Of a DNA stretch of 64,000 nucleotides, positions 2,898 to 60,571 are shown piece by piece. The stretch lies in contig RSEE01000013.1 of assembly GCA_003971905.1 (NCBI GenBank), forward strand, positions 62,001-126,000. The letters are read 5' to 3'. Numbering within the stretch: position 1 is the first letter of the stretch; each line of letters starts with the position of its first letter. The stretch is from Moniliella sp. 'wahieum' (lineage: Eukaryota). A program made the translations under genes and the position numbers. The notes under the pieces are model-generated. The model had not been told where the DNA came from. It did not search any database and saw only the letters and a program-made list of their open reading frames with translations.

Positions 2898-5800
2898 GCG
2901 ACCCCAGACGCACAGACCCTCGGCCACATGAGCTTATTGAGGTCTGAGGGAGGCCCCAGCGCGCGGGAATAATAGACGAGACGAAGAAAAAGTAGGTTGG
3001 ATGGGGGGCGGGGGACGGTGAGGAATAGCCGCAAGGGCAGCAGCCGATGGCTATCGTGCCTGTCATCTGTCACCCACACAAAACACAATAGAAATGTGAC
3101 ATGTGATGAGGCACACGGGCATAGGATGAGGCACGGCAGAGACGGGATGATGCTTGACGGATAGCGGCTGACGGCGTGGGGCCCCGGAGTGGGGCACCTC
3201 TGCGGTGGTAACTCAGAACACCGGGCATGGCCGGAGGCATGGATCCCGACGATGGGGGAGCGTGGGGGCGGGAGCGCCAGGCAACCGACAAGAGGCGGCT
3301 ATGTGCGCCGGGGGCCGAGCGGCGCTGGGGGTGGAGGCACTGGGTGGCGCTTGGCCGCGTCAAGAGTGGGGCTGGCCGGGCGGCTGGGGAGTGTGGGTGG
3401 GGCGGGACGAGAGAGCGGGGGGCGATGGAGTGAGGTGCGGTTGGCGCCGCACTGCGTCTGTTCGGCTCTGGTTAGCCCATGGTGGCTCGCCTGCGAAAAC
3501 AGCCAGAGACACTCCAGTGACGGGAGGCTAGTATACGGCGCGCTAAGACCCAAAGCCTTCCAAGCGCCCTGCGCGCGTCTACGGCTGCTACGGCTGCTAC
3601 ATGGCCGGTATAGCAGCACAAGGACGGTCAACAGATGTGAATGTGATGGTACTTTGAGTGTAGCTTTGGCCACGGCGTAAAGGCCTGTAGCACGCTACTA
3701 CGTCCGGCCGCGGTACGGTTGGGGCAGGTGCTGGGCCCTGCAACACGTGCGGGGCAAGCTGCAACGCTGGCGGCGGAGACGAGTGCCGGCTGGTGCCTGC
3801 CGGAGCGCATCGCACCCCCGCATGGCAGCCGCCGTGTGGGGGAATCAGTAACCAGTGCAGCAGCTGGGCCTGGGTGTCCCCCCGTGCCTGGGCCGGCAGC
3901 CATCACCCATCGCGGCATTAACGTCAAACATGTAACAAAGCGCAGCACGTGCAGCTCTCCGATCACCGGTCGCCAGTGGAGCAGGCGACAGCAGAAGAGC
4001 GCAGGCTGGACACTGCCCCCGCGCTGGGCCCGGAGCGGGTATAACGCACGAGGCACAGGGCCTCTGAGTACATGGAGTGCTGACTGGCGCTTCCCTGCTG
4101 CATCCCCCACGTCGCAGGGGGCCAGCCAGTGCGGCGAGCCCGTCCTTGCCCCCACACTGGCACCGCGCCCCAACTGGGAAGCGCATAGCTGTCTCACCAT
4201 GTCCGCCCTCCCCAGCGTCTGATCGCATCGGTTCCGCGCCCTTCCGCTCCCGGTTCCGCGGCCCGAACTCGTAGTGCTTGGGCATGGATTGGGACGGCCA
4301 TTGTTGGATGTCTGTGTCTTCCCTCTCCCGTTCCATTGAACGTTTGAACCCAGCCACCATCTTCAATGCACCACCCTCTCCCATCATCTTTCGGCGCGAC
4401 GGCGGGTCGCCCAGCCTATCCTCTCTCCCTCGTCGCAAGTCCCGTTCGTACGGCCGAGGTGGTCTGTGCGGGAGCTTCTGTGAGTCCCTGAATTTGTCCT
4501 ACTTCAATCTTTTCGTCTCTGGTCTTTTGGACACAAGTGAGCTTCACTGCTTAGTTGTGAGCATGCGGATCTGGACGTCGGTTTTTCCTGATCTGAGCAT
4601 CTCGTTTTCGTTGTGAGATTCTTCCCTCTCACGCGCTCGCCTCATGCATCATGCCTTCTACGTTTCTAGCTGAGGGCAGAGAACCTGTCATTTTTCGTTT
4701 GAGCATTTCTGGGTTTGACTGTCCCGTTCCTGGCTGAGCGTGGGAACCGTTCCCTACTGTTGGTCGGTGCTCATTTCTGGGTACCACAGGTCTCGATTCC
4801 CTTGCCCATTCTTCGTTGTGCTGTCTTCTCTTATAGATCCTCGTCTGTATGACTCTTGATTCATGTTTCTTTTCCCCTAGCGGGACATTTCGTCTTTTCC
4901 TTCGTCTACTTCGTCTTTTTTGTCCACATTTCGCCTCATCCTTTCGTCGTTCGTCCTTGCGCAGCATCCTTTGCCAATCCATCCTTGATCCACCACCAGC
5001 CAACTCCCGTGCTACTCTTTTAGATCGCCAGCAGTCGCTCCCAACTGCTTCCAGCAGCCACAACTGGGCCTTTTCCGTATCCATTCGGCCGCGCCATCCA
5101 TTGCCGTCGATCTCCAGCTTTCAATCTGGTCTGTCTGCTCTGCACCGATCCCGCGGCGACCCTGCAAGAGTTGAGTTGTTCGTCCGACAGACCCGGTCCT
5201 ACTTTGTCTTGGTCTGACGCGTCAACCGTACCGTTCAGGCAACCCTTCAGGATCACACAACGGACGGCAGACACGCTGGACCTGCACGTTCCGGTGCATC
5301 CACAACCTCTGGTCACGCGAGCCGACACCCCAATTGAGAGGTCCCACCTCGTCTCAAGCTCTGTTCGGATCTGCCAGTAGTGCCCGGGGGCTCGATGAAC
5401 CGTGAGTGCCAGTGGCCTGTCCAGATGGAGATGAGCGAGCGACAAGCAGACTAGCCTCGGTTCCGTTTAGTTTATTGTCGGGTGCAGTGCTCTGTCCAGA
5501 TACTAACTAGAGGGGGGGGATGAATATGCATGCCATGGCAAAAGCAAAAGCAAAAGATGATGGTGTGGTGAAGAGAGCACAATCAAATCTCACCGCCAAC
5601 CTCTTGTTTCGCTTTCGACCATTTTTCTTAGCGCGATGCAAAGCACGCTTCAGCCCAAACATCTTCCTCCCCAGCATCTCGAAGACATCTTGGCCCAGAT
5701 CTGCTCCAAGGTCCTCGTGGCATGCCTGCACCGTGGCTTGCGTCCAAATTAAATAATGGGCCCCAGTGGCAGTGGTACGTTTCGGCAGTGCGTAACCCTG

Positions 5801-6742
5801 CGCAGATGGCCCGTTCCTTCGCGCCCTCTAAGGAGGAGAAGTAAGGGTGGTGCAGAGGTATACTGACCAACCTGCTGTTGAGTGTATTCCCACTCGACCG
5901 CTGTCCATTACCCCTCTGGCTGTTGGCGCGGTCCACGGTCCAAAGACCTCAACAACATATTTCGTCCTCCCGACACGCCATGCACCCCGGCGACACTTTG
6001 TATCCGCTACCAGACACAGCATTGTTCGAGCCAGAACGAGATGACAAGGAGCAAAAGGAAATAGATTGGACCACTGGTGAGGAGAGCCACGATTCTCACT
6101 AGAGTGTATCGGCCATACACTCGGAGACGATATGGTTCCATGTCTTGCGTTGCGGTTCTTCCTCTTCCTCCGCGCACCACACCCGGGCCCGTTGTTCGAA
6201 ATGGCAGTGTGCATCATACCCAAATAATGAAAAGCGCTCGAGTTGCGGGTCGGCTCCCGCACCATCTCGCAGAGTGCGCTGAAGGTGGAAGGGATAATCG
6301 ATAACGTACGGAGCTCAGGATGGGCTCAAACAGGTTTAGTGAAGTCAGTCATCATGGCGACGAAAAGAAAGGTGCTGGACCGTCGCGGCGACACGGTGGC
6401 CAGAATAGGCAGGGGCAGGTTGGCCACGAGACGAATATTACAGCGATCCACCCTCAACCCTGCGCGTAAAACTACACATGTGCCCCAGTGGACGCCGCGA
6501 CGGAACATGATGTCTGACGCCCTCTCGGTTAGGGGTCTAAGACGCTGAGAAAAATAGGCGCGCAAAGGCAGGTATCAAAACAAGCAAGGCAAGAAGGATT
6601 CGAGCACCGTTTCAAACCGGTGCATTTTTGTCAGGTCGTACATTTCCACATCAATAAGAACGAAAGGGGGGGGAGGGGGGATTAGTGGTAAGAAGATAAG
6701 GCGCGCGGGGGGGGGGGGGGTTCAAACCCTCAGGAAGCCCGA

Positions 6743-8841: not shown

Positions 8842-11216
8842 GGTGGACGAAAGAGGTGGTGGTGGTGGTGGGGAGGAGAAACGCAAGGGGGCCCCGCGTT
8901 GCGAGGCGGCGAGCGGGAGGCTTAATATGCGAGCGCAAGCGATGGCGCACACACGCGTGCCTTGGGAGTGGTGCGTGAGCGCGTGAGGCTGGGCGCCGTT
9001 TGTTTTGTCAGGGGGGCCAGCGGCGGAAAATTGTTCCTAAGAACGCAAAGGAGCCGGTCGCCGGGGGGCGTTAGCTGCCATTATGCGTTAGACGCAGAGA
9101 ATGTGGCGGCGGGCGATCTATGATGCCATACTGCCCGCCTGCCTGGGCGCGAGCGCTCTGGCGCGGCCGCAGCCACGGGGCCTGTGGCCACCACACTCCC
9201 GCACGCCATGACGCGATGGCGCGGGTGACGCGTGACGCATGACGTGCGCCGCCGTGCGGGCGATAGCAGAGATGGACGCGACACCGACCCCGTGCCGACA
9301 GTTTGAGATGGGTTCTCGACGCCACATCGCTATCGCAACACTGGCGCTGTGCGTCTGCGTGGGATTGGCTTGGGCGGCACAGTTGCTCCGTTTTCGACCG
9401 GCTTTTGGCCGTGCCCGTGGCCAGGGCACACCAACGCAAAATAAGGCAAACCAACGCAGGCCAGCGCACACCAAGGCACCGCCGCCCCGCTCAGCTGCGC
9501 ACTCCGACGCCCAGGCGCGGCGCCCGGCCCGACAATGGGCCGGCTTGCGGCTGGCGCCGTGCCTTAGCCACCCGCAGCCAGCGGCCAATTAATTGCAAGC
9601 CCCCCTGAGGCGGCAGAGTCAGCCAGTAAAAGAAAAAAAAAAATCAAAATTCTATAATCAGTGAAGCTAGTGACTCCTTCCAAGCGGCGGGGCTGCGCCT
9701 GGGCCGTGCCTGGGCCGTGCCTGCGTTGCCGTGGCTGTCGGCTAGTCGGATGGATGATGCAGTCGATACAGCCGCGTCAAGACACCCCCACCACACACCA
9801 CATGTTTCCTCCACCGCCCACCAGCCCAACCCTGGGATGGGGCCCAAGAGGGCCCAGGCGGCCCAGGACTTGGATATGCTTCGGTGCCTGTCCCGGAGAA
9901 GGGGTCAGTTCAACTTGAACGTTCAACGAACGGTTCTCCGGGGCTCAGGCTGAGTGCCTCAGCAGGCTGAGGCTCAGCCTTCAGTGAAGCTTCAGACTGA
10001 AGCTCAGTGCGCAGCCTCCTGAGCACTCGCTCACTAGTCACTGGTGAGGCTTACTGCTCACTAGTTCCCCACTAGCTCGCGCCCGCATCCCCAGGATCCA
10101 CTTCTCAGATCTCATTCTTATGCGCTAGGCCTTAGGCCGAGCTTGATACGTGATGCACTTGAGCGCTGCAGGCGCGCTTGAAGCTTGAAGCTGGATCCGT
10201 TTGGCGCGTTCGCACCGTATGTAGATTCTTTTAGAGAGCAGTATATTATACCCCAAGCACCGTCCGCGCTCCCCCCTGTGTTACGCCCAAAGTTATACCC
10301 TCTTCTGCGTACTGAATCATGGTGCACTGAGCTATTAACTAACTCCGATTAACACGCAGGCGCGCTCGTCGTTATCATGCTCTTTCTCCCTCCGCCCTCC
10401 TCCGCCAGTGCCACATTTGCCCCACCTCGAGTATATTATTGACCCGTATAGACTGTGAGCCGCACTCTAAACTGTTCCATCAACGTCTTCGAGCACCACA
10501 ACCGTAAGTACACAGGTGGTTCGCATGGCGCGGACGAAGGTATCGATCATTTGCCAAAACCCCACATTATAATGGCCAAGCCGGCAAATTGACTTGCTCT
10601 CTTAACCGCTCAAGCTTCAGCTGAAGCCTTTGGACTCTGGGCACAATACCAGCATGCTATTGCTCTAGAGTGGGTGCGACCCTTCCCCCCTTCAGTGCGT
10701 TGTTTGGGCATGATTAATCATTGCTCGGCGGGCCATCTGTTCGTTTGGGATACCACTTCCTGGCCCTCCCCTCTTCCCGGCGGAACCTCATCGTCTCTCT
10801 CTTCGCCGTGGCTCTTGATTCTTTCTTCCTCTACCGACTGCCTCCCTACTAGCCCCGCTCACATGCATGTCACACCGGTAGATCACATGCATATCCAACC
10901 AACTGTTCAGCGCCCTAACCCGTCGATTTCGAAGCGTATCGTACCTATAGGACTTGCCCCAGCTGCTTGCTGTAATGCTCTTCCAACGTCCTGATGCTCC
11001 CAGGGGTTTAGTGCGTGGCAGATGAGGAACAGCCACCGTCGTCGGGCCCAGGTCAGAAGACATGAACGTATGCGTGGAAATTGTTGTACAGGTGGAAGGG
11101 GGAAGAAGACACGAGAAAACAATGGGAAGGACACCAGGTAAAAGGGAGGACGTGGATGAGGCCCCGGTACGTGAACATGAACGTCTGTATGGAATCCTGT
11201 GGAATCCAGGAATAAG

Positions 11217-14740: not shown

Positions 14741-14772
14741 GCCACTGCCACTGCCACTGCCACTGCCATTGC
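14741..14772 (+). repeat. (GCCACT)n hexanucleotide microsatellite
   Basis: About five tandem GCCACT units just upstream of the MATE start codon. Confidence 0.85.
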
Positions 14773-14806
14773 CGCGGCCCCCACCCCACCACCATCCGCG
14801 CAAGCA

Positions 14807-17089: not shown

Positions 17090-18623
17090 ACGCACATGGA
17101 ACCTTTCGTTCCACTGGCGCTTCGTCCTAGCCATTCTTCTGGGGCCTCGTCCATTCCACGGCGTTGGTACCGTTCGCGACATTGTCATATTCCCCTCACT
17201 TGCATCCTCTGTGCCTCCTTCCTCATCTTCACACCTCCACCTCCCCCCCTCGCCTCCTTGCGCCTAACCTTCTTTTGCAAGGATGTGTGGTCCTGTAATG
17301 TTGTCCCCGTACCTCGCATACTGCTCATTGCCGGTCTTCATTCGTGCTCCTGTCCGCGTTCGGTTTTCGCTGCTATTCCCCTTCCAGGCATTCGTCCCGC
17401 TTTCTCTCCTATTGAGAGCAGTCCCTAGTCACCCCCAATCCCCCCCCAAAAGAGGGCCCAAACGCCCTCCGCTTCGTCCCAATCCATCCCACATGGAAAC
17501 CTCGGTTGAGCACATATATAGGCCATCAGTCTCGAGTGGAAGAATCAGCGTGACATGTGACATGCGACACGCGTCCCTGCTTCCCGACGCCCCCCACAAC
17601 GCCACGCCCCTGCGACGACAGGGTAACGCAGTCGGGGTGGCAGGACTAGATGGGTCGACGGAGTGGCCTTGGCCGTGACTTGGAGCTCCTGGAGGTGGTG
17701 AAATCGGGGGGAAAGCGTAAGTTAGCCACTGAGGTTCTATACGCGGGGAGAGAAGTAGTAGGCCAAGTTCAGCGGCTCAGCCTAGTAGGTAGTCGCGCTT
17801 GTCATGTGGTTGCGAACCCCATACGACTCAGCCTCTCTCTTCCAGAGCCTTTTCTCCAGCTTCCAGGTTGCCCCAGGTTACATGTTACACCCTCTGTCTG
17901 ATACGGGGCATGTGCATGTGCTGGGGAGCGCTCAGGCTGAGCACGCACGACTGTGTGCTAGTTGCACATGCAATGGCACTGCTGCGCATGTTAAGCTTTA
18001 AGCTTTGGGAGGCGCCAAGCCAAGTGTTGGTGAACGGGTGAGCAACGCCGTCGATCCCGATCGTCAATCATCAATCATCCAGCCTCCCCAGTCGGAGCAG
18101 AGTACAATGCGCATGCCTGGCACGATGCATGAGTCATGTGAGTGGTGGTGAGCATGTGGGGGAAAGCTGGAAGAGGCATTGCGTGGATACGGGTTGATCG
18201 TGATCGAGTGATCGTCCGAGGCCCTCTGGCTGCCCGTGTCCCTCAAACGGGGACGTTGCGGCGCTCATCGGCATGAATGTAATCAATCTCATCGATCTCA
18301 GACCCCTCATCAGCCTCATCCCGTGGCTGAGCGGCGGGGTGGGGGATTGTCGATTGCGCCCAATGGACGTTGTTTCTGCGGCTAATCAACGTTTCAATGG
18401 ACAACGGTGTGCGCTCTACGACGTTCAGCTCAGCCATGCTTCCGCAACCTGCGTCCATGTGGTTTCCTCCGCCGCCTCTGCCCAGCCGCAACAATAGCCT
18501 GCACGCTCCTATATACGCCGTTTGGTTATAAGCGACTTGGGTGGCTGTGCTCGCCATGTACAGATAGCTACCACTGCTGGTACTGCCCGCCGCCCCCTTC
18601 TCGTCTTCCCCCCCGCTCTCTCC

Positions 18624-20466
18624 ATGGTTGCATCCGGCATCCTTGCGCCCGTCGCTGCCACTGCGCTGGCGCTGAGCCTGGCCCTGACGCCCGCCGCCTC
18701 GGCCCGCACCGTCGCATCGGCCTCGTCGGCGGCCCGCAGCTACGTTGCCAGTTCGGCTGCTGTGCCGCTGGACCAAGTACTGACCTACACCGTCGCCCTC
18801 ACGCCAGGCAAGCAGGAGCAGTTGGATGCCAAGATGCTCGCTACTTCCCTCCATGGCGGTGCGTGGCTGAGCGAATCGGAGCTGACGGACTATACGCGTT
18901 CCAAGCCCGAACACGTTGCTGCCGTCAAGGCCCACCTGGTTGCGCATGGTATCCACGAGTCGGACATTACCATGGGCAAGTGGGGGATGAGCTGCGTGTA
19001 CAGAGCACCGTCGCTGCTGCCAACGCGGCCTGGAATACTTCGCTCCAGGCCTACACCCATACCACCCAGGGCCACACCATCCTCCGTGCCGCTGACGGGT
19101 ACTCCATTCCGGACGGTATCCTGCATGAGGCCATTGTCAACGTCCATCCGTTACCTCGTTCCCCAACGTGCGTACTTCGGCTCCGATCCCTGTGCTGCCC
19201 AATGCGCAACCGGCCCCGCTTGCGCATCGGGCCGGCAGCAGTAATTGCGATGCCTCGGCAGTGACGACCAAATGTCTCAAGCACTACTACGGTGCAGGCA
19301 ACTTTACGCCTGTGCCGCAGGAGGGAGAGACGGATGTGCTGGTGTTTGGGTTTTTGGGAGAGTATGTGTCGCCGACGGACGTGTCGAGCTATATGAAGAA
19401 GTACAGCGACTACCCCAACTATACCATCCCCATCATCTCGGCTGGCAACTCGACCAACGATCCGTCCAAGCCCGGAAGCGAGGCGATGCTCGATGTCGAT
19501 ATGGTTGGTGGCCTGATCGCACCTCTCCACGCGCAGTTCCTGTCTTTTGGAACGGACAACCAGAGCGCCAACGAGCCCTTCCTCCAGGCCTTCCACTGGG
19601 TTCTGGACAACTACAATGATACCAGCCGTCCCGGTGTGATTACAGCGTCGTACGTCGACGACGAGTCATCCTACTCGCCCGCCGACGCTCACCAGCTGTG
19701 CAACACGATCCAAAAGGTCACTGCCTTGGGCACGTCGGTCCTGTACGGATCGGGTGACAATGGCCTGAACGGGGTCCAGTCCTACGAGAACTTGAGTTGC
19801 AAGAGCAAGTTCAACCCGACCTTGCCTGGCGACTGCCCTTATGTCTTGTCCGTCGGCGGCACCCAGGGCTTCCCTGAAGTCGTCGTTGATGGCAACTCGC
19901 CCAACGGTTTCTTCGGAGGAGCTGGCTTCTCCAGCACTGGCTTCTTCAGCCGCCCTGCCTACCAAGTACGTACCTACCCTTTTCCTCTGCTCTACGTCGT
20001 CGTTCGTGGCTCTTGCTATGCTATGGGCCAACTGACAAGCTTGCCACACTGGGTTATTGTACTGTAGAACATCTCGGTTACCAACTACTTGAAAGAGATC
20101 AAGTATGCCCACTCGTCCTACTACAATTCCAGCAACCGTGCGTACCCGGACGTGTCCGCCATGTCGCTCAACCTGGTTGTGGTGGTGGGAGGGCAAGAGC
20201 AGTTGATTGGGGGGACGAGTGCTGCCACGCCCATCTTTGCCGGTATGCTTGCCTTGCTGAATAACCAGCGCAAGCTCCAGGGCAAGGCACGCGTCGGTTG
20301 GATCAACCCCGCGTTTTATGCCAAGCCAGAACTGTTGCGCGACATTACGTCGGGAGACGTGGGCGGTTGCCCCGAGCCGGGGCTCACGTTTGAGGCCACC
20401 ACGGGCTGGGACTTGCCGTCGGGATTGGGCAGTCCCCTGTTTGGGAAATGGAGCGAGTTGCCGTAA
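18624..20466 (+). CDS. secreted sedolisin / tripeptidyl-peptidase (peptidase family S53)
   Basis: Signal peptide MVASGILAPVAATALALSLAL and prodomain (HGGAWLS). Catalytic E..LD (SEAMLD), oxyanion SGDNG, RAYPDVSA, nucleophile GGTSAATP and Ca-site GWDLPSGLGSP. Intron 19966-20067. Confidence 0.93.
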
Positions 20467-21307
20467 AGCTTAAAGGGGGGAAAGCGCACGAACGCCTACT
20501 GGAATGACGCTGATCTATCCTTTTCCTTCGACGGACGCGCGAGTTTGATGCTGTTTCTACTAATGATTGATGAACGATGCAGCGAGACACACGTTTTGCT
20601 TGCATGTGCGCATCGACAAGGCGCGGGACGCCATGTTGACTGTAATCGCAACTATCCTTTATCTATATGGTGCTCAGCTGGATTCGCATTGTTGCTTCGT
20701 ACGTAGCGCATGCGGCAGCCCATGCGCCAAGACTTTTGTGAGGAGGCCGTTGCTAGCTGATAACACATGGCCAATGAGGCGAGAGAGTGCTGGATGAGGC
20801 AGGTGGAGGTGGTGTGGATGCTGGGGCAAGATGGGAGCGCATAGCTAGATGGTCGTGGGGATGGATGGGGTGGGAACATGGGAACATTACCTTGCTAGAG
20901 GGGGCGTCAGCATCTTCCGCAGGACCGACGTGCATGTTACGGCTTGAAGCTTGACATGCGGCAGGCTGCAGGCTGCATGCTGCCCGGGCAGTGTACCCCG
21001 CCTTTGCTCATCACTCATCGGCCATGGCTGCGGGCACTGGCGCGTGGCGGCGCGTGCGGGAGGAAGCGGCGGATGGGGGTGATGCCCCCACTGGCATGCA
21101 GCGGTGACTATTGGAGTTCGCTTGGCCTGGGCTGGGCACTGGTCGCAGGCACCAGTCACTACACTGCCCACTAGTCACTAGCCACAGGCCTTGCCTAGTC
21201 CAGCTTTCCGTCCCAGTGCCTGCGCCTCCCGCATCTCTTCTGGCCCACGCGCCCCACCTTCGTCTGCCCCCCCGCCTCCCCCCGCGCCCCGCGCGGCTCC
21301 CTCCACC

Positions 21308-35413: not shown

Positions 35414-36205
35414 CGCGGTATAGAAGTGCAAAAGTACATAAAACCTCACGCGTTAAAAACAAGTACACGCAGTTTTACCCCACAAACGTAAGGCCAGAAG
35501 TTGCAACAGAGGGCAACCCGACAACGCGTGGGCATGGCCCGATTGGGACCACGGCCTGTGCGTTCTGGATCTACTTGGCGCAATGGAGTCGGCCCTAGTC
35601 CTCACATCATTTGATCTTCAAGCTGGTTAGGCTAGTCAAGTGAGGCCGGCCAGGCAATGCATTACTACTCGTTTATTCTACTGTTTGGATTCGTGTGTCT
35701 TAAAAAACGAGAAGCGAGTAGCTCTCAGTGGCCCCCCACGGTTCTTACAGTACGCCTGCTGACACCGGTCAATGGTCACTTTGAGCAAGGACCATTTTAT
35801 CTGTACGATGAGTAGCCCTTAGCACCATCGACCGTGATCCATCAACCAACGCCAGATCGCAGTGCAGGTGCCAGCCAGCATCATCTCCGCTTACCCCACA
35901 GATCCCCCATCCATACGGCCTCCCGTACTCCTCACATGCCACAGTGGCATGGCAAACTACTTCTCGCGATCAGTGCACTGAACACTCCCGAATAGACGCG
36001 CGTAAAGGAATACATTACGGCACAATTGGGTCCGTTCGCGACCCGCCGGAGAGGTTGAGAAAAGGGTTCGTAGCCAATCAAGTCGTAAGGGAGCCAAGTG
36101 ATGCAATTTAGTTGTTGGCAAACATTGAGGAGAGAGAGCGAGAGATTAGATTCCAGCATCTGTCGCCGACACTTCGGCGCAGGGGAGAGGGTTGGTATTA
36201 CAACG

Positions 36206-37918: not shown

Positions 37919-38137
37919 TCTTTTCTGCGAATGGTGCGCGGCGGGGGGGGGATATGGTGGTCGCTGGAGAGGTGGTATACAGGACAGGGAAATATATATA
38001 TGCAACTTTTTCTGGACCTGTTCAAACGATGTGCCAATGTGACATGCGCAAATGTTGGATTGACGTGCTCGGCATGCTCTCAATGTGGGGGGAGTCTTGG
38101 CGGCAGATTTTTTTAGCCGCCAATTCGAGCACTACCA

Positions 38138-38410
38138 AGGGATCTAATCGATCTAATCCAAGATCCTCGATCCACACCCTTCCATGCCCCGCAAGCCTGA
38201 GACCCTGAGACGCCACTGCTTTACTGCCTCTCAGATCTCATGCATCACGACCCAGATGCCGGCTGGTCAGGTACTGGGGGCTGTGACTCCGTACTCGGTG
38301 GCTGAGGGAGGACTCACAGATACTCAGGTTGAGAGTACACTTGAGTACCTTGAGTAGCCAGACGGTGTACCGACAACCGGTGTGGCTCAGGCACACGCAT
38401 ATGGGCAAAG
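38138..38410 (-). repeat. upstream segment of the MFS gene, source copy of the inverted repeat at 45910-46195
   Basis: Its reverse complement aligns with 45910-46195 (e.g. GGCATGGAAGGGTGTGGATCGAGGA, CTGAGTATCTGTGAGTCC), with many substitutions and short indels. Confidence 0.9.
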
Positions 38411-39904
38411 TCACCGATGCGGACCAGGCCTGCCCAGGCCCGAGACCGGGTCCCGCCATAGATTGCCTGAGGTGTTCGTGTGCCACAGGCCATGGGGGGG
38501 AAGTTGACTAGTGACTAGTGACTAGCTGACTGCCCCCTGATTAAGGAGGTAGGGGCAGGGCAGTGAACGTTGAACTCGTGAACCAGTGAGCGTTCAAGTT
38601 GAACTCAACGTTGAACTCAGTGGACGGGCAGGCTACTGGGCGTTAGAGTAAAACTTCCGGCGGCACCGGTAGGCGCACCCGCCCATCGGATGGGGTGTGG
38701 TGACCGGTGATACGGCGTAGTGTCGGGTTCCATGTTCGACGTTGATGCTAGCACGCCATACGTCCATGGATGTTGGTCTTCTGCATGGTTGCACGGTCGT
38801 GTGCCTGGTCGATGATCGATGATCAATGTTAATGATCGATGATCCGCTTGCCTTGGCGATTTCAAGTTGAAATTCCGACGAGGCAGATGTGCGGAAGAAA
38901 TTTCTTCGGCCAAGTAGCTGCTCCACACGCTCCGCTTGCCATTGGTCTTGAATAGCAAGCTGCCGCACTTCCTCGAGACTTGCGTGTTGGGCGCTGGAGC
39001 GTCAGGGGCCATGCACATGCATCGTGCGAGTTGTCCAAGCTGGTCTCTCAGATGCCCCCAGCCTCAGCGACTAGTGAGGCACGCAATGAGATGAAGAGAG
39101 AAGGAGATTGGTCTCTGATTGAACTTATTACCCATCCGCATTATCGCAACACTCATCAGTGTTGCTCTCCGTACGGTCAGCATGGCCCATTAGTCACTAG
39201 TCACTAGTCACTAGTAGTCATACAGCTCATCTCTGCAGACATCTTCGCCCGCTTGCTTCTCCTGTCCTACCGTGCAAGGTATTGGCCGTGCATGCCATCT
39301 GAATCGCCCCTAGGCCCGGATGCAAGGAAGCATGTGCGGCGACCCGCTCCCCCGCTGCTGGCTGCTACGCAACCGCGGCCAAAGTACCGGCCAGCCTGAC
39401 AAAAAACATGACGGACCTTCACGAATGACGAAGCGATGAAGGATGAAGTGGAGTCAAGATGCTAGCCTTCCCGTCGAAATGCGACAAGGAGCCCGCCAGG
39501 CAATAGTCCCCCTAGTCTACCGACGACGAGAGTACCCGGGGTGCTGGAGTACACAGGGGAAGAAAATACATTCTTCGGTCTCCAACGTGGATAACCAAAA
39601 CCGTTGGATTCATCATGCATCACGGAGACGTTTCGGTAGACCTGTTGCTGACCGTGACCGCTGAACGTGCAAAGCAAGCACAGGAGATGCTGGCGCGCCC
39701 TCAGCCTCATCCGCCAGCGGATCCGAGGGAGCCCAGGACATCGTTGCCACCTGGCTGGAATAGTGGACCGGACGTACTTTGAACCCCTCGGAGCCACGGC
39801 GCATTAACCTCAGATGCTTCCATCACGCCATGTGCTGACATGGGCGAGGTGACAGTAGCGGTTTCTAACGCGCACAGAGTCACGAGGAGGCCAACGGTAT
39901 TGCG

Positions 39905-40640
39905 CTAGAGGATCGGAAACAGAGGGATAGGACCACTCCGACTGGTTGGCCGCCGTTGCGACAGTAGGCTGCGCCTGGGTGTGGGGCAAGACCGCCCGCA
40001 GCGCTTGAGGGACATGGGCAGGGGGAGCTGGTGGTACAGGCATGGTAGCGGTAGGTAGGTGGTCAATGTAGGTACGAGCCAGAGCCAGGGACGAGGGCCC
40101 AGTGTAGCAAGCAAATTGGTAACCGTGCCCACAGAAAAGGGATATGCTGTGCTTCGGAGCTGGAGATGCGACCCCGGGGGCGAAGGTGTGGCCGCGCGAT
40201 TGGTTTCGGAGGACTCGATGGACGTTTGGTTGGCCATGGTGAGCAAAACACAAGTACAGTGAAAAGCCCCTACGAGCAGCAGAACCAAGGAGGAAAGGAC
40301 CATGTTGGTCAGTAGCACCCCCATCACAAACGACGTGGGGGCCCGCGGCGAATGCGCCCCGCGTCGAGAGCGACTTGGGCCAATAGATGGAGATTAAATG
40401 ACAGACAGACATCCGTCGCCAAGAGCAACCGAAGAAAGTCGCCGTGATTGCGCGCTCCAATACAACTGCCCAGCCAAGGGCAGTGACTAGTGATGCAAGC
40501 GATGGTCCATTCGCACAATGCACACCCCGCAAACACGGCGTGGCTGAGGAACAATATATGGTGCTCAGGTGCTCTGTCCGGCAGCGACGGAGATCCAAGC
40601 CGGGAGCCACGCCTGTTACGTAATCCTCCTGGGGCTCTCA
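39905..40640 (-). pseudogene. DHHC palmitoyltransferase (Pfa3-like) pseudogene
   Basis: Reconstructs to PDRA..HCRVCGVCIVRMDH[16-nt insertion]HCPWLGSCIGARNH, then two TM segments, a TTxE-like NQTSIE and a PaCCT-like PFSVG..NL..LG..WLWLVP. There is no room for TM1-2 before the divergent IVY1 start at 40809. Lesions are multi-base insertions and a deletion, unlike the single-base errors in other genes. Confidence 0.85.
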
Positions 40641-40808
40641 TTAAAACAATCAGCGGGCCAAGCGGCACGTGCTCTGATTAAAGGCGACTGCTTTTTGTGG
40701 GAGCACCTGCGCGTTGGCGGTGGCGGTGGCCGCGCCAGCAGCCTCGCATCCCTCTTCCCATCGCCCCTTGCGCCCCAACATTGGCTGGCATCGCGATCAC
40801 GCCGCAGC

Positions 40809-42509: not shown

Positions 42510-43099
42510 TTGTCCTTCTCTCTTTGTACTTTGTTCTTCGCACCAGATGTTGGCCAGCCTGCCGGCAATGTCCCGTCTCGTTTCTTTTGCTTCTTTATCA
42601 TTGGTTTCATTGACCTCCCACATTCCTTTACTATCGCATCGTTTGTGCTTGTCCACTTTTTTCGTTGATACCTCATCCTGCTGCTTACCCTTGGACCTGT
42701 TGCTGCCCAATTCGACGAGTATGTAGATGCCAAATGAACGAAGGGATGGTTAGATGACGCGCGATGACGGGAACCAAAGGATCCAGGGGTGTTGGCAACG
42801 CCGTCGGTCTCCTTAATTGAGTGTACGAGAGCTGTCAGCAAACGCTGGATGACCGAGCTTGGTAGAGACGAAACGTTTCTTCGTTGTATGTCTCCGGCGC
42901 TTGAGGTTTACAAATGCTACTAGTATGAACCCAAAAGTCATCTCGGCCCAAAATCTTGCAACATCCCCAACCCAGGCCATGCTTCAGCCAAGGACGGCAT
43001 GTCCGTCTCTGTGTACGGCGCGACACTCACTTCTATGCCGGCAAGGGAGTTCATACCCCGTTAACGAGCATCCCAAGTATACAATAAGCAACCGAGCCA

Positions 43100-45879: not shown

Positions 45880-45909
45880 CACAGGCGTCATTCGCGAGCA
45901 GGCTGTAAT

Positions 45910-46195
45910 CTGGTCTCGGGCCTGTGGGCAGGCCTGGATGTCATATACTTGTCCCAGAGCCACACTGGTCGCCGGTACTCAGTACTCAAGGTACTAACTC
46001 AATTGAGTGTACTCAATCTGAGTATCTGTGAGTCCGAGTCCTCCTTCAGCCACCGAGTACTGAGTCGCAGCCCTCACTACTGACCAGCCAGCATCTGGGC
46101 CAGGAGAGAGGCAGTAAAGCAGTGGCGTCTCAGGCTTGCAAGGCATGGAAGGGTGTGGATCGAGGACCTTGGATTAGATTGATTAGATGATCCCT
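45910..46195 (+). repeat. diverged inverted copy of the MFS upstream region 38138-38410
   Basis: Direct visual alignment to the reverse complement of 38138-38410. Confidence 0.9.
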
Positions 46196-46331
46196 AGGTG
46201 GTTGTGTCACCGGGATTACCGGCCGGCGGGGTTGGAGAGTAGCAGGTTTGTGTTCGGGCGGCCGATCCCCGCGGTGGGCGGATAGGGGGGGGGGTTGAAG
46301 CTTGGGGTTGATGCGATTGACGAGCTCAACG

Positions 46332-46543
46332 GCATCCATTGCTTGCCTCCTTTCCACCACCTTTTGGCTTCAATTGTCCCCTGACTCGTGCCATCTCGAC
46401 TCCTCAACTAACTCGCTGCTTCCCTCTCTGCCCCTAGCCTTGATTCCCGGTGGGTCTCTCTGCCATAATAGGTGAGTACCAACGGAGCTTATTTCTTGGC
46501 CTCACGGAAGCTACAGTGGTGCCTGCATGGGTGGTGTATACCA
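46332..46543 (+). repeat. 212-bp direct repeat, copy 2
   Basis: Matches 45669-45879 and runs on into the MFS duplicate. Confidence 0.95.
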
Positions 46544-47997
46544 GCCAATGGTACATCGTCGTGAGCAGGCGTTCCGTGTTGGCCTTTGGTTCGCTACCTG
46601 TGGTCTATCCCAGATCTTGGGGGGTGCGATTGCGTATGGGATTGCAACCCATGTGGAATCGGACCCGCACGCAACCCTTCGCGGTTGGCAGATTGCTTTA
46701 TCGTGTTTGGCATCATGGCAGCCTTGTTTGGGGTTATGTTTACATGCTGCTACCCAACTCGCCCGCCGATGCTTGGTTCCTCACCGACCGGGAGAAGGCG
46801 ATTCACATTGAGCGCCTGCGCAGCAACGAACAAGGGATTGGATCCGGCACTTTGACTGGGCTCAGTGCCGCGAAGCGCTTCGGGATCCGTTCACGTGGAC
46901 CTATTCGTTTTGGACGTTTGCCGCCCAGCTCTTGCCACCTCGTTTGGCACCACGCTTGTCATGGGCCTCGGATACACGGCGAACCAGTCGTTGATTCTCG
47001 TGACACCGCTGGGCGCAGTAGAAGTGGTTGTGCTGATTGGGCTCAGCTGGCTCGGGTCAAGGACAAACAAGCGGATTTTCTGGTGCATTGTCGGTCACAT
47101 TCCTGGCTTTGCAGGGGCGGTCATGATGGCCACGACGGGCAAAGTGCCGGCACTGATTGGATTTTTCCTAACGGGTGCCATTCCTCTGGGATGGGTCACC
47201 ATCTTGGGACTTACCTCGTCCATCGTGGAGGAGCGAGTAAGAAAATTACGGTTTCAGCCATCCAGACTGTGGCCTACACCATCGGCGTACGTGGGCTTCT
47301 CTGTTCTTTTCCTGTCGACCGATTGACTAACTTTTCATCTCACATCTTAATTTGCATCTCCCCACGTCTACCCAGAACATCATCTCGCCTCAGATCATGA
47401 CACACAGGCTCCCCGTTACCTGCCTGCAAGATCGCCATTGCCTCATCTATTTCATCTGTGCTCGGACTTTGCACTGATGTGGTACCTCTTTGTCCGGGAG
47501 AACCGCAAACGCGACCGGGCCAAGGAGGAAGCGATTGCCAACGGCACATACACGCCACCAACAAAGAACCACGAGTTCCTCAACTTTTGACCGACCGGTC
47601 CAACCCTGAGTTCCGGTTACAGTGTCTAGAGTTGTGTATTACCAACCCTCTCACCTGCGCCGAAATCTCCGCGACAGATCCTGAAGTCTAATCTCGCTCT
47701 CCCTCAGTGTGTGCGCCAACAACTAAACTGCATTATTTGGCTCCTTTACGACTTATTGATTGGCTACGAGCCCTTTTCTCACCTCTCCCGCGGGTCGCGA
47801 ACGGACCCATTTGTGCTGTGATGCATTCTTTACGCACGCCTATGGGAGTGTTTAGCATTGATCGCGAGAAACTGAGGTATGCCATGCCGCTGTGACACGT
47901 GAGGAGTGCGGGAGGCCGTATGGATGGGGGATCGTGGGGTAAACGGGGGTTGATTCTGGTTGGCACTGCACTGGGATCTGGTGTTGGTTGATGGATG
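46495..47997 (+). pseudogene. 5'-truncated inverted duplicate of the DAL5-like MFS gene plus its 3' flank
   Basis: Aligns to the reverse complement of about 35837-37349, starting at LGLTEATVV and retaining the intron. It lacks the first roughly 190 codons and has an approximately 10-nt deletion in AANIPNSL. Confidence 0.88.
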
Positions 47998-49236
47998 CTG
48001 GATGATGTTGATTGATGATGGATGGGGATAGTCGATAGTGGTGGTTGATGCATGATGTGTGCTGAGCGCTGAGGCTCGGCGTCCGCGCTGCGAGGGGGGA
48101 TTTGGAGTGACGGCATTCTCGACATAAATTGCCGAGAACGAGGAAGCGGGCACGGAGACAGTCGGTGGACCGCACGTTGCAACACTGTCCCAGCCCTGCG
48201 CCGGCCTGTGCCGGCGCATTCAAGTTGGAAAGAGGGCCGCGGCTCGCTTTGCAGGCGCAGCGGCGGTGACAGCACCGCCGCGTTGCGCTTATAAGGGTGC
48301 CGGATCGGCGCTTGAAAATCAGCGTTCAGCCGAAGTGTGAGGACCGCTGCTGCGCGCCACTCGGCACACGCCATGCACCTTGCACCATGCATCATGCATC
48401 ATGCTTCAATCTTCATCTGCCCTTGGCCCGCAGCCATCTGATGCGGTGAACATGACGGGTGACCGTCACTTGTGATGTGGGGCTTTTTTTTTTTTCTTCT
48501 TTCTCGTTTTTATAGCAGCACAGGGCCTTAGGATACTACCTGTGGGTAACCAAGGGCTACGCATCGTTGCGCGTTATTCATTGTCGAATCTCCACGCGCA
48601 CGTCCCTCACGCATCACGCCGTATGCACCCTCCTGCTGCTGCCACGGTGCGACGGAGCACGCGCTACTGACTAGCTAAGCTCATCAGCGCACATCAGCGC
48701 TCAGCGCGCCCGTCACGATAGTGACGATCAGAGCTTGTTCACCGTATGGCAAATGTTGATTTTGGCATGGCGTTTTTGGGCGTCCCCGAGCTCCCCGCCT
48801 GCCGTCTCCGCTGGGCCTTTCAGTTTCCACCTGGCGCACGCGTGATGCGTGACACCACACGCGCTCCCGGCTGCTCTCGGCCACCCGCCGCCTGCCGGAT
48901 CGGCGAGGAGAGACAGCAAATTGTGCGCACGCACCAAGCGCTCCCGCGCTGGCACAGCAGCCGTGCCCTGCTGTGCGCCCAACACGGCGACACACTCGGG
49001 ACGGTGGTTGTTGCTAAGAACGCTGGGCCTGTCTGTCCCAGCAGGAACATCGCTCGCACACACTCGCATCTGCTGCCCCGCATTTTTTTTCTGCACCTTG
49101 CTCGTGCACCCTCCGATATTCACACTTCTGCTCCGCTTCCTACATGCCCCGCCTGCTCCCTTTTAAGCGCCTGCTCTTCCCACCGACCAGGCAGACTACC
49201 CATCTCCTTCTTTCTCCATCCGCCCTCTTTCCCGCC

Positions 49237-53656: not shown

Positions 53657-55341
53657 GCCTTTGGCCGGGCGCTGGGCGCTGTCGCGTGCTGCAGGCGTGC
53701 GGCAGGCGCGCGGCAGCAGCGCGGCGGCACATGCCTGCATCCCGAACATCCCACACGGGCCGCTCTGGCCTGGCGCATCATCGACACTGCCTCTGTGCCG
53801 CTGGTGTTCCTCGTCTGCAATCACAGATTCCAGACTTCTGACGTGCGAGGCTCTGACCATCGATCATCGATCATCATCACTAGCATCACTGGTCACCCGT
53901 CACACCTTCGGATTGCCCCCACCAATGAGTGCTGGTGCTGAGCGGCTAAAGCGCTGAATTTGCTTTTGAGACATGCGATCTGTGACATGTGACATGTGGT
54001 TACTAGGTTACTGCCTAGTGGCTAGTGGCTAGTGGCTACATCACCCACGCGCTGCCATCGGGAGCGGTTGGTTGAGCTGGTTGTGTCCACGGGTATCCAG
54101 TTTCCGACTTGTGTTTCTCTTCTGTCGCTATTTGAGGGCACCCCATTCCCATACAGTCGCTAGCCAAGCAATTACTCATCATGCGGCACAGCAGGCAGCT
54201 CCAGGCGGCCACCCACATCCCACAGACAGTAGCTTTTGCCACAGCGCATTCTAACAGCAGATGGCTGCTCTCCATCCACATTGCTCGGGGATACGGAGCG
54301 GTAAGAGGAAGGTAACCGGTCATTAAAGACTAGCAACCCGGAACCCACTGCCCCTCTTCCGCCACACTGCCAAGGTCTGCAAGCCCGAACCAGGGGATAG
54401 AGTCCGATAGCCACTCTGTGGTGCATCGGTAGCCTGCGACACCGCCACGCCATTGCCACGCCCTGCTCCACATGAAGCGCCACACACTGTGCCTTATGCA
54501 CGCGATGCCCTGCGATGCCTTGCGATGCCTCGCCGCCCATTCCCGCCCATTCCGCCTGCCTCTTGATGTTCCACATTCAATGAGGCTTCACACCCTCGCC
54601 CCCTGCCACGCCCACCCCTGCAGCCCCCATTAGCCACAATGGAATCCCACCGCCCCCAGCACAAGCTGATCCAGGGGCGTACAACCCTTTCAGGGCGTTT
54701 GCAATAGTCCGCCGGCACCTGCATGTTGCTTTCCGCACAGCCTTTGGGGTTCTAATCCATCCATCAGGCACTAGCTCGTTTCCCCCGCCATTGTCATGTG
54801 CGACAGTGTTATAGACTACCAACGGCACCTGTCTGACTGAGTAGTAGGGCGTGTGAAAACCGATTCGCCAAGTTGCCGTTGGGAAAGGGAGGGAGACCAA
54901 GGTCCTGTCAGAGGCGGGAGGAAAGGCAAGATCGTTCGTGGGAGGAAACAGAAAGCATCGGGCAGAGAACAGAAGCAAAAGGAAAGGGAAGAGCGAGAGA
55001 CACATGAGCCAGAATTGGAAACTGGAGCGAGCTTAGTCCTTCGGTGACAAAAGGTTGGCTGCCCTTCCGTTGGCACTGGCCTTCACATTGGCCGCAGCCA
55101 GGTGAAATATCACACTACATGATGAACATGTATCGCTATGCCGAACCCGCTATGTCTATGCTCAAGCCCTCAAGCCCGACTGACTACTCTCAATGCCGCG
55201 TCAAGCTTCAAGGCGCTCAACCATGCGCTGCTCACATTGTCTTCTTCTTTTGACGTTTAGTAGCCTGATGGTACTGGGCTGGCCTTTGTGGCGCCAAATC
55301 GTTCTCATCAATTCTCGGATTTACCCTATCTCGTCGTCGGT

Positions 55342-56919: not shown

Positions 56920-57837
56920 GGTTTGCGCTCGTGTTGAAATGTGAGGATGGTGGTGGTGGAGTTGTGGGAAGAGGAAAGAGTCATTACAAAAGTAGCTTTA
57001 AGTAGTAGCTTTTAATGGTGATCCTCCGCAATCTCACATCGGAGCGCTTGGCATGCGATATGCGATAGGCGGTGCAACCGACTGGTGGTCGAAAGGTACA
57101 AGTAGGACCCAGTACGGCTATGGATATGACTCGACTAGGTGGCTTGCCGCATCGCATGGAAGGAAACACATCAGGAACACACCACCGGTTTCTGAGATCC
57201 CCGCGGACTATGCCAGTTGCGACGCGGATATCATGCACACTGCATGTTGATAGATTCCCCAGACAGATCCTCTGTGCTCCGGCGCTGACTCCCATCTCAC
57301 CCTTGCATCGAACCTTGCGCTCTGGCAGGTTCACAACCCTCCTCCTGTCTTCTCACCACGACCCGTACCGCTTGGAAGCGATACCTAGTACCCAATTTGC
57401 TCCAATCACTCATCTCCCCCTCCTTCAGGCAGTCTAGTCAGTCAGTACTCCGGTATACACTCGTCGGTCGGGGTTATTTGTCTGAGAGAGATCTGATTGC
57501 GACCAGTGGTCACATGGGTCATGACTCCGTGACGCGGGAATTACCCACCTCGTCATGGTCATCCACAGTCACGCGTTCACGTGGCAGCAGCAGCTGAGCC
57601 CGCCGAGGCTCGCGCCGCCTATCCTGAGCAGGGCCACCATCCTGGGCCAACGCTTCAACAAGAGCATCGGCCTAGCATCAACGTAAACGTTAAACATCAA
57701 CGCGGAACGCGGAACGCTTGCATGCGTTATGCATTGAAGATCGTGGCAGATCACTCAGTTATAAAAACACAGTGGAACAATGGAAATGATGGCTAAGGGG
57801 CAAGGGGGTTCGGGGGGGTGGGGGGGCAAACTCCATT

Positions 57838-59342: not shown

Positions 59343-60571
59343 GGCATGGTGAAAGCAGGGGCAGCGCGGGCGGGCGGGGTGAGGATGGAGACGGGGGGTG
59401 GGACCTCAGAAGGTGATTGGAAGGACAGCGCGCCTCTCTTATAGTCGCTGGCTAGAAATTGGCGAGGCAGGCCATGGATGACACTGGCACCCAGCGTCAG
59501 GCCTCAGCGGGTGTGGTAACCGCGTCTGCGTAACAGTCACCAGTCACCGCCGCCGCTGCCGGCGTGCCTTCACCGGCGCAGTGCGGTTGGTTGGTCTCCG
59601 GCCAGGGCCTCGTCCGCTAAAAATTTTCTCCGTTTGCGGTGGATGAAATTAACAGAAGCTGTGGCCTGCTGCTGGGGGCCCAGTGGCCGACAGGACAGCA
59701 CTCGTACGTTAATCGATAATCGATAATCGCAGGCCCAGTCCACGCCTCGGCCCCACCCTTTGCGTACGCAGCGCCCCACGGAGATGCCCAGGCGCCACAC
59801 CTGCGCACTCCCGGCTACGCTACTGCCGAGCCGAGGGCTGCCGTGGGTTGCCGAACCTGGGGGCTTACGCATTGATTACGCAAGCCCACGGTGCTACAGC
59901 GACCATGGGTGTTCCAGGTCACGCGCTCACGTGCTCCTCCCTCAGCGCTTCAGCCCCGCCTCTACTGACATGGGCGTCACTACCACGACTTCCCCAACAC
60001 CTCCAGCGACCCAAGTTAACCCCCCTATATGGAGGCACGCGCATACTACCTGCTCCCACCTCAATATATGGTGCCCTCGTCTGGATGTAGACCACCTTTG
60101 CTTGTGTTTTCGTCGAGGACACCAATGTGACCCTTTCAATTATCGTATTCCGCTGCGCCATTAAGGGCTCAGCCTGAGCCTCACCGGTCACCCTCACGCC
60201 CTCAGGCCTCCCTCTGGCTTCAGCGGATTGACAGGTTGTAGCTGTGGTCATCGATCTTCGACCAAATGGCTCCAATAGGCTGGACGGTTGCTCATTATAT
60301 GCAGGGCACCACCCTGTAGTCATGATCCGTTGAAACAAGTACATTCAATATTCAAACGTTCAATTGTCACCGCAAGCAACGCCAAGCAAGTACAATCAGA
60401 CCAACGGGAGAAGGCGCAATAAATTCAGTCCTACTGGGAACAAATAGGGTTATTGAGTTACTGTGCCCTTGTGCCGTGCTTGTCGCCAAAGCCAGTCGGG
60501 CGAACGGACGACCTCTGGTGAGCAAAGGCCAACGGCAACCAGACTACCTCCTCACCAACCAACCCACCAAG

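Follow-up and report, generated by a model that had tools for sequence, protein, structure and literature searches.

Hairpins on the DNA flanking a cut are formed by hAT, Transib, RAG and Mutator-like elements and are opened by the host (PMC5499845), footprints carrying P nucleotides are known from fungi (PMC5873905), and 7-base-pair (bp) target duplications are made by the fungal hAT7 and Kyakuja elements (PMC12730594). The window considered here is a 64-kilobase (kb) stretch of the genome of Moniliella sp. 'wahieum' (assembly GCA_003971905.1, contig RSEE01000013.1, positions 62,001 to 126,000; coordinates below count from the first base of the window), with 59% G+C and with open frames that are fragmented, as is typical of an intron-bearing eukaryote. 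Scattered over it are short loci at which a T-N-A triplet recurs across a palindrome that is usually copied from the flank. An earlier note on this DNA had attributed such repeats to the repair of hairpins left by a cutter centered on T-N-A. Our counts show that the TNA-palindrome grammar is real and lies far beyond chance, and they support that interpretation in part: scars of a hairpin-forming, TNA-centered cutter with a 7-bp stagger, accumulated in promoters, are the best explanation, and one to which we lean by a small measure.

The T-N-A palindrome rule

The rule is most simply stated as a 10-base core in which a TNA triplet is followed by a 4-base palindrome and then by the same triplet (TNA-xy-rc(xy)-TNA, with N identical and rc denoting the reverse complement). 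This core was found 53 times, as against a mean of 2.03 and a maximum of 5 in 100 dinucleotide shuffles. Of the remaining 15 pairs of first and third letters, A..T yields no core (2.0 expected) and the others yield 1-10 where 1.6-7.4 are expected, at most about 2.4 times the shuffle mean; the other complementary pairs give 5 against 7.3 (G..C) and 8 against 7.4 (C..G). T..A is therefore the sole enriched pair among the 16, which points to recognition by a sequence-specific enzyme. Extending the core by the 2-base flank copy sharpens the contrast, with 62 such 12-mers in both orientations against 0.3 in 30 shuffles; 12-mers with one rule broken number 74 (7.2 expected) and those with two broken 197 (104 expected), a tail of near misses that fits the decay of unselected scars. 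Among 11-mers with A in the third place (n=76), T precedes in 62, whereas C, G or T in that place gives at most 4 each, so that TNA represents a true site preference and not an artefact of the motif definition.

The distance between the triplets is equally strict. At spacings of 5-13, TNA pairs are in excess at 7 only (103 pairs against 35), and it is only there that the filler is palindromic (53 against 2.3). The reverse complement of the two adjoining flank bases fills 47 of the 53 cores, where 0.4 would be expected; the palindrome copies the right flank alone in 18 cores and the left alone in 14, while 15 cores match on both sides and 6 on none (0.17, 0.22, 0.01 and 1.85, respectively, in shuffled sequence). 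Such near-equal mirror-image outcomes are as expected for a two-fold symmetric cut. The symmetry of the process and the need for a hairpin-type palindrome, loop-less and templated by the flank, both support the earlier interpretation, and non-TNA versions of the motif are not comparably enriched. TNA-centered 7-bp tandem duplications with a non-palindromic spacer, a control suggested in the earlier note, number 3 (0.16 expected).

Could template switching during replication or repair account for the repeats? On this view no sequence-specific cutting would be needed, and realignment would proceed through one base of microhomology, the first and third letters being complementary. Short tandem duplications are indeed enriched 2-4 fold in the window at every period, and heptamer-rich metagenome contigs such as L036 show all four complementary kinds of first and third letter. 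However, spacing 7 alone is affected here, and fold-back priming is not expected to give a loop-less inverted copy. Because T..A is the only enriched pair among the complementary ones, we give template switching a slim chance. Period-7 tracts as such number 65 (12.6 expected); 27 of them obey the grammar, and the 38 outside it show the same 2-4 fold excess as other periods.

Merging of the sites gives 47 loci, whose periodic tracts measure 10 (2 loci), 11 (4), 12 (14), 13 (7), 14 (8) or 15-27 bases (12), with a mode of 12. A plain 7-bp tandem duplication is impossible at the 27 loci that are periodic over fewer than 14 bases, and a 5+2+5 structure predicts the mode of 12. Microsatellite or slippage duplication was rejected on account of these short tracts and of a unit that must hold both TNA and palindrome, although slippage may extend the arrays of 3-4 units. 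The earlier note had excluded slippage at four loci from spacers unlike their flanks; this is sound for 10031, 38564 and 60181 (12 bases each), but not for 9226, whose 14-base tract (9225-9238) could be a plain 7-bp duplication. Its listed repeats were all recovered (25 of 25 forward 5+2+5, 6 of 6 reverse-strand and 2 of 2 '7+2+7' cases), while its tally of about 30 loci was incomplete, missing for example 17878, 20464, 55201 and 57684. The 47 putative scars are given below as period-7 tract, length, triplet and hexamer palindrome; strand was not assigned.

3094..3106, locus of 13 bases, TGA, ACATGT
4642..4654, locus of 13 bases, TCA, ATGCAT
6293..6304, locus of 12 bases, TAA, ATCGAT, left-flank type
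9225..9238, locus of 14 bases, TGA, ACGCGT; plain 7-bp duplication fits too
10031..10042, locus of 12 bases, TCA, ACTAGT
10103..10114, locus of 12 bases, TCA, AGATCT
10176..10192, locus of 17 bases, TGA, AAGCTT
10610..10619, core only, 10 bases, TCA, AAGCTT, without flank copy
17550..17564, locus of 15 bases, TGA, ACATGT
17877..17889, locus of 13 bases, TTA, ACATGT
17991..18006, locus of 16 bases, TTA, AAGCTT
20464..20475, locus of 12 bases, TAA, AAGCTT
20942..20954, locus of 13 bases, TGA, AAGCTT
30346..30359, locus of 14 bases, TCA, AGCGCT
30975..30988, locus of 14 bases, TGA, AACGTT
32237..32250, locus of 14 bases, TGA, ACGCGT
32295..32305, core plus one base, 11 bases, TGA, AAATTT
32307..32318, locus of 12 bases, TCA, ATCGAT
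32316..32326, core plus one base, 11 bases, TCA, AAGCTT
32353..32379, array of 27 bases (3.9 units), TGA, AAGCTT
32377..32393, array of 17 bases, TGA, ATCGAT
32482..32495, locus of 14 bases, TTA, ACTAGT
32761..32774, locus of 14 bases, TCA, AGCGCT
33252..33262, core plus one base, 11 bases, TGA, AAGCTT
38229..38240, locus of 12 bases, TCA, AGATCT; no counterpart in paralogous promoter
38238..38247, core only, 10 bases, TCA, ATGCAT; no counterpart in paralogous promoter
38505..38525, array of 21 bases (3 units), TGA, ACTAGT
38564..38575, locus of 12 bases, TGA, AACGTT
38699..38710, locus of 12 bases, TGA, ACCGGT
38809..38824, locus of 16 bases, TGA, ATCGAT
38832..38844, locus of 13 bases, TGA, ATCGAT
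39191..39215, array of 25 bases (3.6 units), TCA, ACTAGT
39611..39622, locus of 12 bases, TCA, ATGCAT
40482..40493, locus of 12 bases, TGA, ACTAGT; within a 275-amino-acid open frame without Pfam match
45975..45988, locus of 14 bases, TCA, AGTACT; promoter of the second MFS copy, unlike the first copy
48046..48057, locus of 12 bases, TGA, ATGCAT
48061..48073, locus of 13 bases, TGA, AGCGCT
48386..48404, array of 19 bases, TCA, ATGCAT
48694..48707, locus of 14 bases, TCA, AGCGCT
53858..53875, array of 18 bases, TCA, ATCGAT; the ATG (minus strand) of a 716-amino-acid phosphatase frame occupies its first three bases
53981..53998, array of 18 bases, TGA, ACATGT
55201..55212, locus of 12 bases, TCA, AAGCTT
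57684..57695, locus of 12 bases, TAA, AACGTT
59497..59507, core plus one base, 11 bases, TCA, AGGCCT
59710..59729, array of 20 bases (2.9 units), TAA, ATCGAT
60181..60192, locus of 12 bases, TCA, ACCGGT
60343..60355, locus of 13 bases, TCA, AATATT

The central N is G at 20 loci, C at 20, A at 4 and T at 3, hence G or C in 40 of 47. The stretch 32353-32403 forms a chain of TGA triplets with successive 4-base palindromes between them. The array at 53858-53875, which overlaps the ATG of the phosphatase frame, includes additional minus-strand ATGs that are out of frame, and could alter start-site choice.

Longer copies and two paralogous promoters

In some loci the direct copy extends further. TNA was found in 6 of the 17 cases of 6+2+6 and in 5 of the 15 cases of 7+2+7, where other letter pairs reach at most 3 in either class; simple arithmetic at equal base frequencies, rather than shuffling, puts the expectation for TNA at about 0.1 and 0.03, respectively. 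The direct copy in these forms reaches 7 bases with TNA exactly central (2+3+2), in agreement with the 7-bp NN-TNA-NN target put forward earlier. A 7+4+7 form was not found in the window, and neither were 10-base perfect palindromes enriched there, on which ground long P stretches were rejected. The longer variants (strand not assigned in the list; where a triplet lies on the minus strand, this is said) are as follows.

32511..32529, 7+2+7 (period 9), TGA-centered 7-mer; spacer is the reverse complement of the first two bases
38141..38158, 7+2+7 (period 9), TAA-centered; common to the paralogous copy at 46172-46188
38340..38356, 7+2+7 (period 9), TGA-centered 7-mer
53875..53890, 7+2+7 (period 9), TCA-centered 7-mer
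4336..4349, 6+2+6 (period 8), TGA
18200..18214, 6+2+6 (period 8), TGA
32388..32403, 6+2+6 or 7+1+7 (period 8), TGA
53998..54012, 6+2+6 (period 8), TTA
30488..30504, 6+2+6 (period 8), TGA on the minus strand
8973..8987, 6+2+6 (period 8), TCA on the minus strand
42753..42769, 7+3+7 (period 10), TGA-centered, single case; tract computed

Read by eye, the spacer of the 7+3+7 case appears to comprise two bases inverted from the left copy and one from the right.

Imperfect relatives of the motif also occur. Heptamers that combine a 4-base palindrome with a triplet one letter off TNA (TGG, GAA, GGC) are repeated at 54015-54038, 57699-57717, 20961-20977, 21038-21049 and 53667-53681, and may be either decayed scars or relaxed targets. 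Three TNA 5+2+5 repeats have a spacer one base off the palindrome (9233-9244, 48319-48330 and 48607-48619); two of the three have CA in place of CG, the change that would be expected if CpG sites had decayed in older scars.

An internal comparison is provided by an inverted segmental duplication that carries two copies of an MFS transporter gene.

35823..38450, minus strand, MFS copy A with its upstream region (38131-38450)
45920..48010, plus strand, MFS copy B, the inverted paralog, with its upstream region (45920-46205)

The two copies, separated by about 7.5 kb of unrelated DNA, are 97-100% alike over their coding parts and 82-94% over their flanks. Over some 320 bp upstream, motif loci coincide with insertions and deletions (indels) that distinguish A from B; we estimate from the alignment about 5 such differences in 320 bp of promoters that otherwise differ at about one base in ten. 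The double locus at 38229-38247 of copy A has no counterpart in B, and around one 7-mer the 7+2+7 form of copy A (38340) corresponds to a 5+2+5 form in copy B (45975). In addition, an 8-base insertion in copy B creates a 10-base palindrome, and a 9-bp duplication (38141 and 46172) is common to both copies. The opposite flank of the duplication shows indels of 1-4 bases only. The grammar, its specificity and symmetry, the location of the sites and their nature as indels are directly seen.

It is conceivable that the repeats are instead cis-regulatory sites under selection, namely palindromic hexamers bound by dimeric factors and held at a 7-bp spacing. Their location upstream of genes and the retention of one 9-bp duplication in both paralogous promoters would be in line with this, yet most loci differ between these promoters, and the near misses form a tail of mutational decay. 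Because the loci draw on 14 of 16 A-xy-rc(xy)-T hexamers and favor none, and because the palindrome is dictated by the neighboring two bases, selected binding sites have in our estimation a very slim chance of being the answer.

Two side observations concern the duplication itself. Three indels of 1 base and one of 4 bases interrupt otherwise identical MFS coding sequence (36330-36450 versus 47380-47500), either because copy B is decaying or because of assembly errors. Just upstream of and inside copy B, two adjoining direct repeats of 102 and 112 bases (45669-45879 and 46332-46543), 100% identical and 663-664 bases apart, stem either from tandem duplication in the very recent past or from the assembly.

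Might the motifs themselves be an artefact of assembly or sequencing? The 1-base indels in MFS coding sequence are perhaps errors of that kind. On the other hand, one variant was inherited by both paralogs, the sites avoid coding sequence, and no known error mode gives a TNA-specific, flank-templated palindromic insertion of 7 bases; we attach next to no credence to this possibility.

Position of the sites and their proposed origin

Genes were named by a Pfam scan of all 173 open frames of at least 130 amino acids.

1122-2580, minus strand, aldehyde dehydrogenase
6758-8537, minus strand, amino-acid permease
from 12822, plus strand, Kei1
14690-16955, plus strand, MatE transporter
from 18386, plus strand, sedolisin-type peptidase
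22913-24605, plus strand, carbamoyl-phosphate synthase small chain
33304-35074, plus strand, class-III aminotransferase
36512-38131, minus strand, and 46444-47397, plus strand, MFS transporter, two inverted copies
51713-53860, minus strand, dual-specificity phosphatase
55419-56378, minus strand, class-V aminotransferase
from 61081, plus strand, ribosomal protein L7

None of the 53 cores lies inside the Pfam-supported coding segments (14,493 bases, 22.6% of the window), which bears out the earlier statement that confidently identified genes are free of sites. Of the 64 one-kb bins, 20 contain loci, at most 8 in any bin, and 29 of the 46 gaps between loci are shorter than 500 bases, where 14 would be expected under uniform spacing. 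Clusters lie at the following places, upstream of oriented genes.

9225-10619, upstream of the permease
17550-18006, upstream of the sedolisin-type peptidase
32237-33262, upstream of the class-III aminotransferase
38141-39622 and 45975, upstream of the two MFS copies
53858-54012, upstream of the phosphatase
59497-60355, between two diverging genes

Sites are also present upstream of the aldehyde dehydrogenase; a few are found 3' of genes (20464, 55201), and one falls within an unnamed open frame (40482). As a description of location, the earlier term promoter mutator does justice to this upstream, non-coding distribution.

Some features of the gene landscape stand apart from the motif. In protein searches, an aldehyde dehydrogenase piece had fungi as its best named matches, among them smut relatives (Tilletia, Exobasidium, Ustilago, Pseudozyma and others) at 68-69% identity, and matched other assemblies at 77-82%; an aminotransferase frame likewise has fungal relatives, and a search with the 716-amino-acid phosphatase frame gave no match. 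These matches place the host among the fungi and hint, though weakly, at a position near the Ustilaginomycotina. The region 24000-32000 shows a strong plus-strand purine excess (GC skew 0.15-0.17, AT skew 0.08-0.10) and many long open frames on both strands without Pfam match; a large gene of low complexity possibly lies there. Runs of 14-18 identical bases, either C or G, lie at 12824-12839, 50412-50429, 6707-6720 and 30718-30731.

How might the repeats have been generated? A loop-less inverted copy that abuts its template is the product of a covalent hairpin opened off-center, as in the P nucleotides of V(D)J joints and of hAT, Transib and Mutator excision (PMC5499845, PMC5873905). Fold-back priming cannot give such a copy. 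As the palindrome here abuts its template without a loop, a covalently closed hairpin is implied, and as the direct copy extends to 7 bases, a 7-bp stagger is needed, which the integration of an element would supply. We therefore consider it somewhat probable that a cut-and-paste DNA transposon, absent from the window, left the loci as scars of its excision; it would have a 7-bp NN-TNA-NN target, and its flank hairpins would be opened 2-3 bases from the tip. What is seen are end products, and from these we infer the transposon as well as the chemistry of the hairpins and the steps of repair. We envision a scenario whereby the element integrates by a 7-bp staggered cut centered on T-N-A, so that the 7-mer pq-TNA-xy is duplicated, and whereby the transposase, upon excision, would seal both flanks as blunt covalent hairpins. 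A host nuclease resembling Artemis or Pso2 might then open one hairpin 2 bases off the tip and leave a palindromic 3' overhang, xy-rc(xy); opening 3 bases off is equally possible because the third base is T in any case. End joining that retains the 4-base palindromic overhang of one flank and trims the other would yield TNA-xy-rc(xy)-TNA-xy, a net gain of 7 bases, and partial trimming would yield the 6+2+6, 7+2+7 and single 7+3+7 forms. Each scar would regenerate a TNA target, such that repeated hits or later slippage could build arrays of 3-4 units and chains such as 32353-32403. The accumulation upstream of genes might have two reasons: such elements would prefer open chromatin and re-insert locally, and frameshifts of 7 bases would be purged from coding sequence.

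Several observations weigh against an excised transposon. A window-wide search for exact 7-bp direct repeats flanking inverted ends gave three matches, none of them TNA-centered, so that the element with terminal inverted repeats anticipated in the earlier note was not found in the window; likewise, 841 TNA-centered 7-mer pairs tested for inverted ends gave one weak, GC-rich match, against an estimated 0.3 expected. As already remarked in that note, no transposase is visible: none of the 173 open frames of at least 130 amino acids, to which the scan was confined, carries a transposase domain. The two cleanest indels between the MFS copies, +8 at 38196 and +6 at 46030, lie outside the grammar, and the A/B promoter comparison, in which the alignment is complex and the polarity of events unproven, offers no clean empty-site or filled-site partner. 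With 47 loci over the 64 kb, and as many as 8 within a single kb, the density of scars is high for an element without a nearby copy. We know of no described family with an NN-TNA-NN target consensus. The spectrum of outcomes is very uniform, with period 7 far outnumbering periods 8 and 9, whereas 128 experimental Ac/Ds excisions gave 28 types of footprint (PMC5873905). The contrast may in part reflect a bias in detection. Our literature search returned neither a description of the TNA-palindrome grammar nor an element with a 7-bp NN-TNA-NN target. An excision footprint is a known kind of feature; the TNA target, the uniform grammar and the density in promoters are undescribed in the literature searched.

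Alternatively, the cutter might be encoded by the host. A hairpin-forming nuclease or transposase, possibly domesticated, would cut TNA-centered sites in open promoters, and repair would leave a scar of 7 additional bases. Such an enzyme would suit the strict TNA (mostly TSA, with S for G or C) specificity, the lack of an element or transposase in the window, and the very high local density with its chains of hits on one triplet; moreover, domesticated hAT transposases that make hairpin-capped breaks, such as Kat1, are reported from yeasts (PMC4763223). A single hairpin-capped break, however, gives 2-3 inverted bases and not a direct copy of 5-7 bases, which needs the 7-bp stagger that known chemistry supplies via integration of an element. 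To our knowledge, no host enzyme that cuts at TNA, forms hairpins and leaves +7 scars has been described. All considered, a host-encoded cutter seems unlikely. We give a small chance to a stronger version, in which a hairpin-forming transposase or nuclease retained by the host would still be cutting TSA-centered promoter sites and would constitute a built-in, promoter-restricted insertion mutator that continually makes 7-bp cis-regulatory variants in a fungal genome poor in transposons. If a host mutator were at work, it might be the source of unexplained small repeats reported in smut genomes.

If excision by a transposon is indeed the origin, the scars alone would fix three properties of an unseen element: a 7-bp duplication, an NN-TSA-NN target and a cleavage that leaves the flank with a blunt hairpin, to be opened 2-3 bases from its tip. 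A single process would then account for much of the variation by small insertions that is seen upstream of genes, its signature could be counted and searched for genome-wide and across populations, and there would be a way to ask what share of promoter evolution stems from cycles of insertion and excision as opposed to point mutation.

Relation to described elements and repeats

Heptamer repeats are found elsewhere, in a different guise. When metagenomes were scanned with a three-unit array of one heptamer as the seed, at least 123 loci were returned; a TNA-restricted grammar using many hexamers was not found among the ranked loci of at least 3 kb (the best 25 listed), and most loci examined carry one recurring unit. 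One such contig, L036 (1-8664; 8.7 kb, 45% G+C), holds 80 heptamer tandem tracts of at least 13 bases, including non-palindromic units; many of its units add one base to a 6-base palindrome, and every one of the four complementary letter pairs is represented among these. We take its repeats to resemble, possibly, the heptamer repeats of filamentous cyanobacteria, and heptamer-packed loci of this type, with repeats of all kinds, were judged a different phenomenon from the grammar of the window. In L076, L028, L048, L038, L058, L015 and L059, one heptamer (ACTAGT type with TCA or TGA) occurs with similar flanks at many separate places per contig, which suggests that the organisms concerned carry a dispersed repeat of specific sequence.

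Among transposons, the hAT elements Ac/Ds (studied in plants, budding yeast and Candida albicans) likewise leave a retained target duplication with short palindromic P-nucleotide insertions; their joints also show small deletions, and all this has been explained by flank hairpins, host opening and end joining (PMC5873905). Experimental Ac/Ds footprints are, however, far more varied than those of the window, and hAT palindromes have the complement of the element-adjacent base as their center (PMC5873905) and are hence odd-centered, whereas those of the window are even-centered. The canonical hAT duplication is 8 bp (5-7 bp in named variants), and the 7 bp inferred here match the hAT7 variant only (PMC12730594). 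The odd-centered form has no site at spacing 7 and 9 sites against 8.8 expected at spacing 6; canonical hAT was rejected on this lack of enrichment.

V(D)J coding joints and Transib show even-centered palindromic additions on one end and trimming of the other, an outcome like the one proposed for the window. We are aware of no report of the Transib family in fungi. Transib and RAG duplicate 5 bp, as compared with the direct copies of 6 and 7 bases found here, and were rejected: the TNA-specific 6+2+6 and 7+2+7 forms contradict a 5-bp duplication, and a 5-bp T-N-A-x-y target would be asymmetric. A 5-bp duplication with 2 added bases was rejected on the same asymmetry, the 6- and 7-base copies being left unexplained. 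The blunt flank hairpin of these systems, opened a few bases off the tip, nevertheless resembles the one that we propose (PMC5499845). A blunt flank hairpin is also formed by Mutator-like elements (Muta1, 43+43 nucleotides; PMC5499845) and fits the even-centered palindromes of the window, whereas their duplication, usually 8-11 bp, exceeds the 7 bp inferred here, and Muta1, the one element assayed, was excised precisely in more than 90% of events (PMC5499845).

In the length of the target duplication, the window resembles two elements of basidiomycetes that duplicate 7 bp, namely hAT7 in rust fungi and Kyakuja in Laccaria (PMC12730594). hAT7 belongs to a hairpin-forming superfamily whose chemistry predicts odd-centered palindromes, unlike those of the window.

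A T-N-A target triplet is shared with PIF/Harbinger and IS5-type elements, which duplicate 3 bp, TNA or TWA. The 3-bp duplications of PIF/Harbinger-type elements are also stated in PMC12730594. Hairpin or overhang repair around such a duplication yields neither a 4-base palindrome copied from the flank nor direct copies of 6-7 bases; a 3-bp TNA duplication, which is unable to template the palindrome, was therefore rejected, and with it PIF/Harbinger and CACTA, since the direct copies run 2 bases beyond TNA on either side. Each family named in the earlier note thus fails one test: hAT on the odd center, CACTA on 3 bp and Transib/RAG on 5 bp.

Finally, small '10-bp repeats', published for U. maydis, reportedly lie between the genes of a transposon-poor smut genome and have been proposed to be scars of past element activity. 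The core described here likewise has 10 bases, and the best named protein matches of the window include smut relatives. The two may be the same phenomenon. If the window's repeats are indeed excision scars, they would give form to the old suggestion that transposon-poor fungal genomes such as those of smuts keep footprints of past elements.

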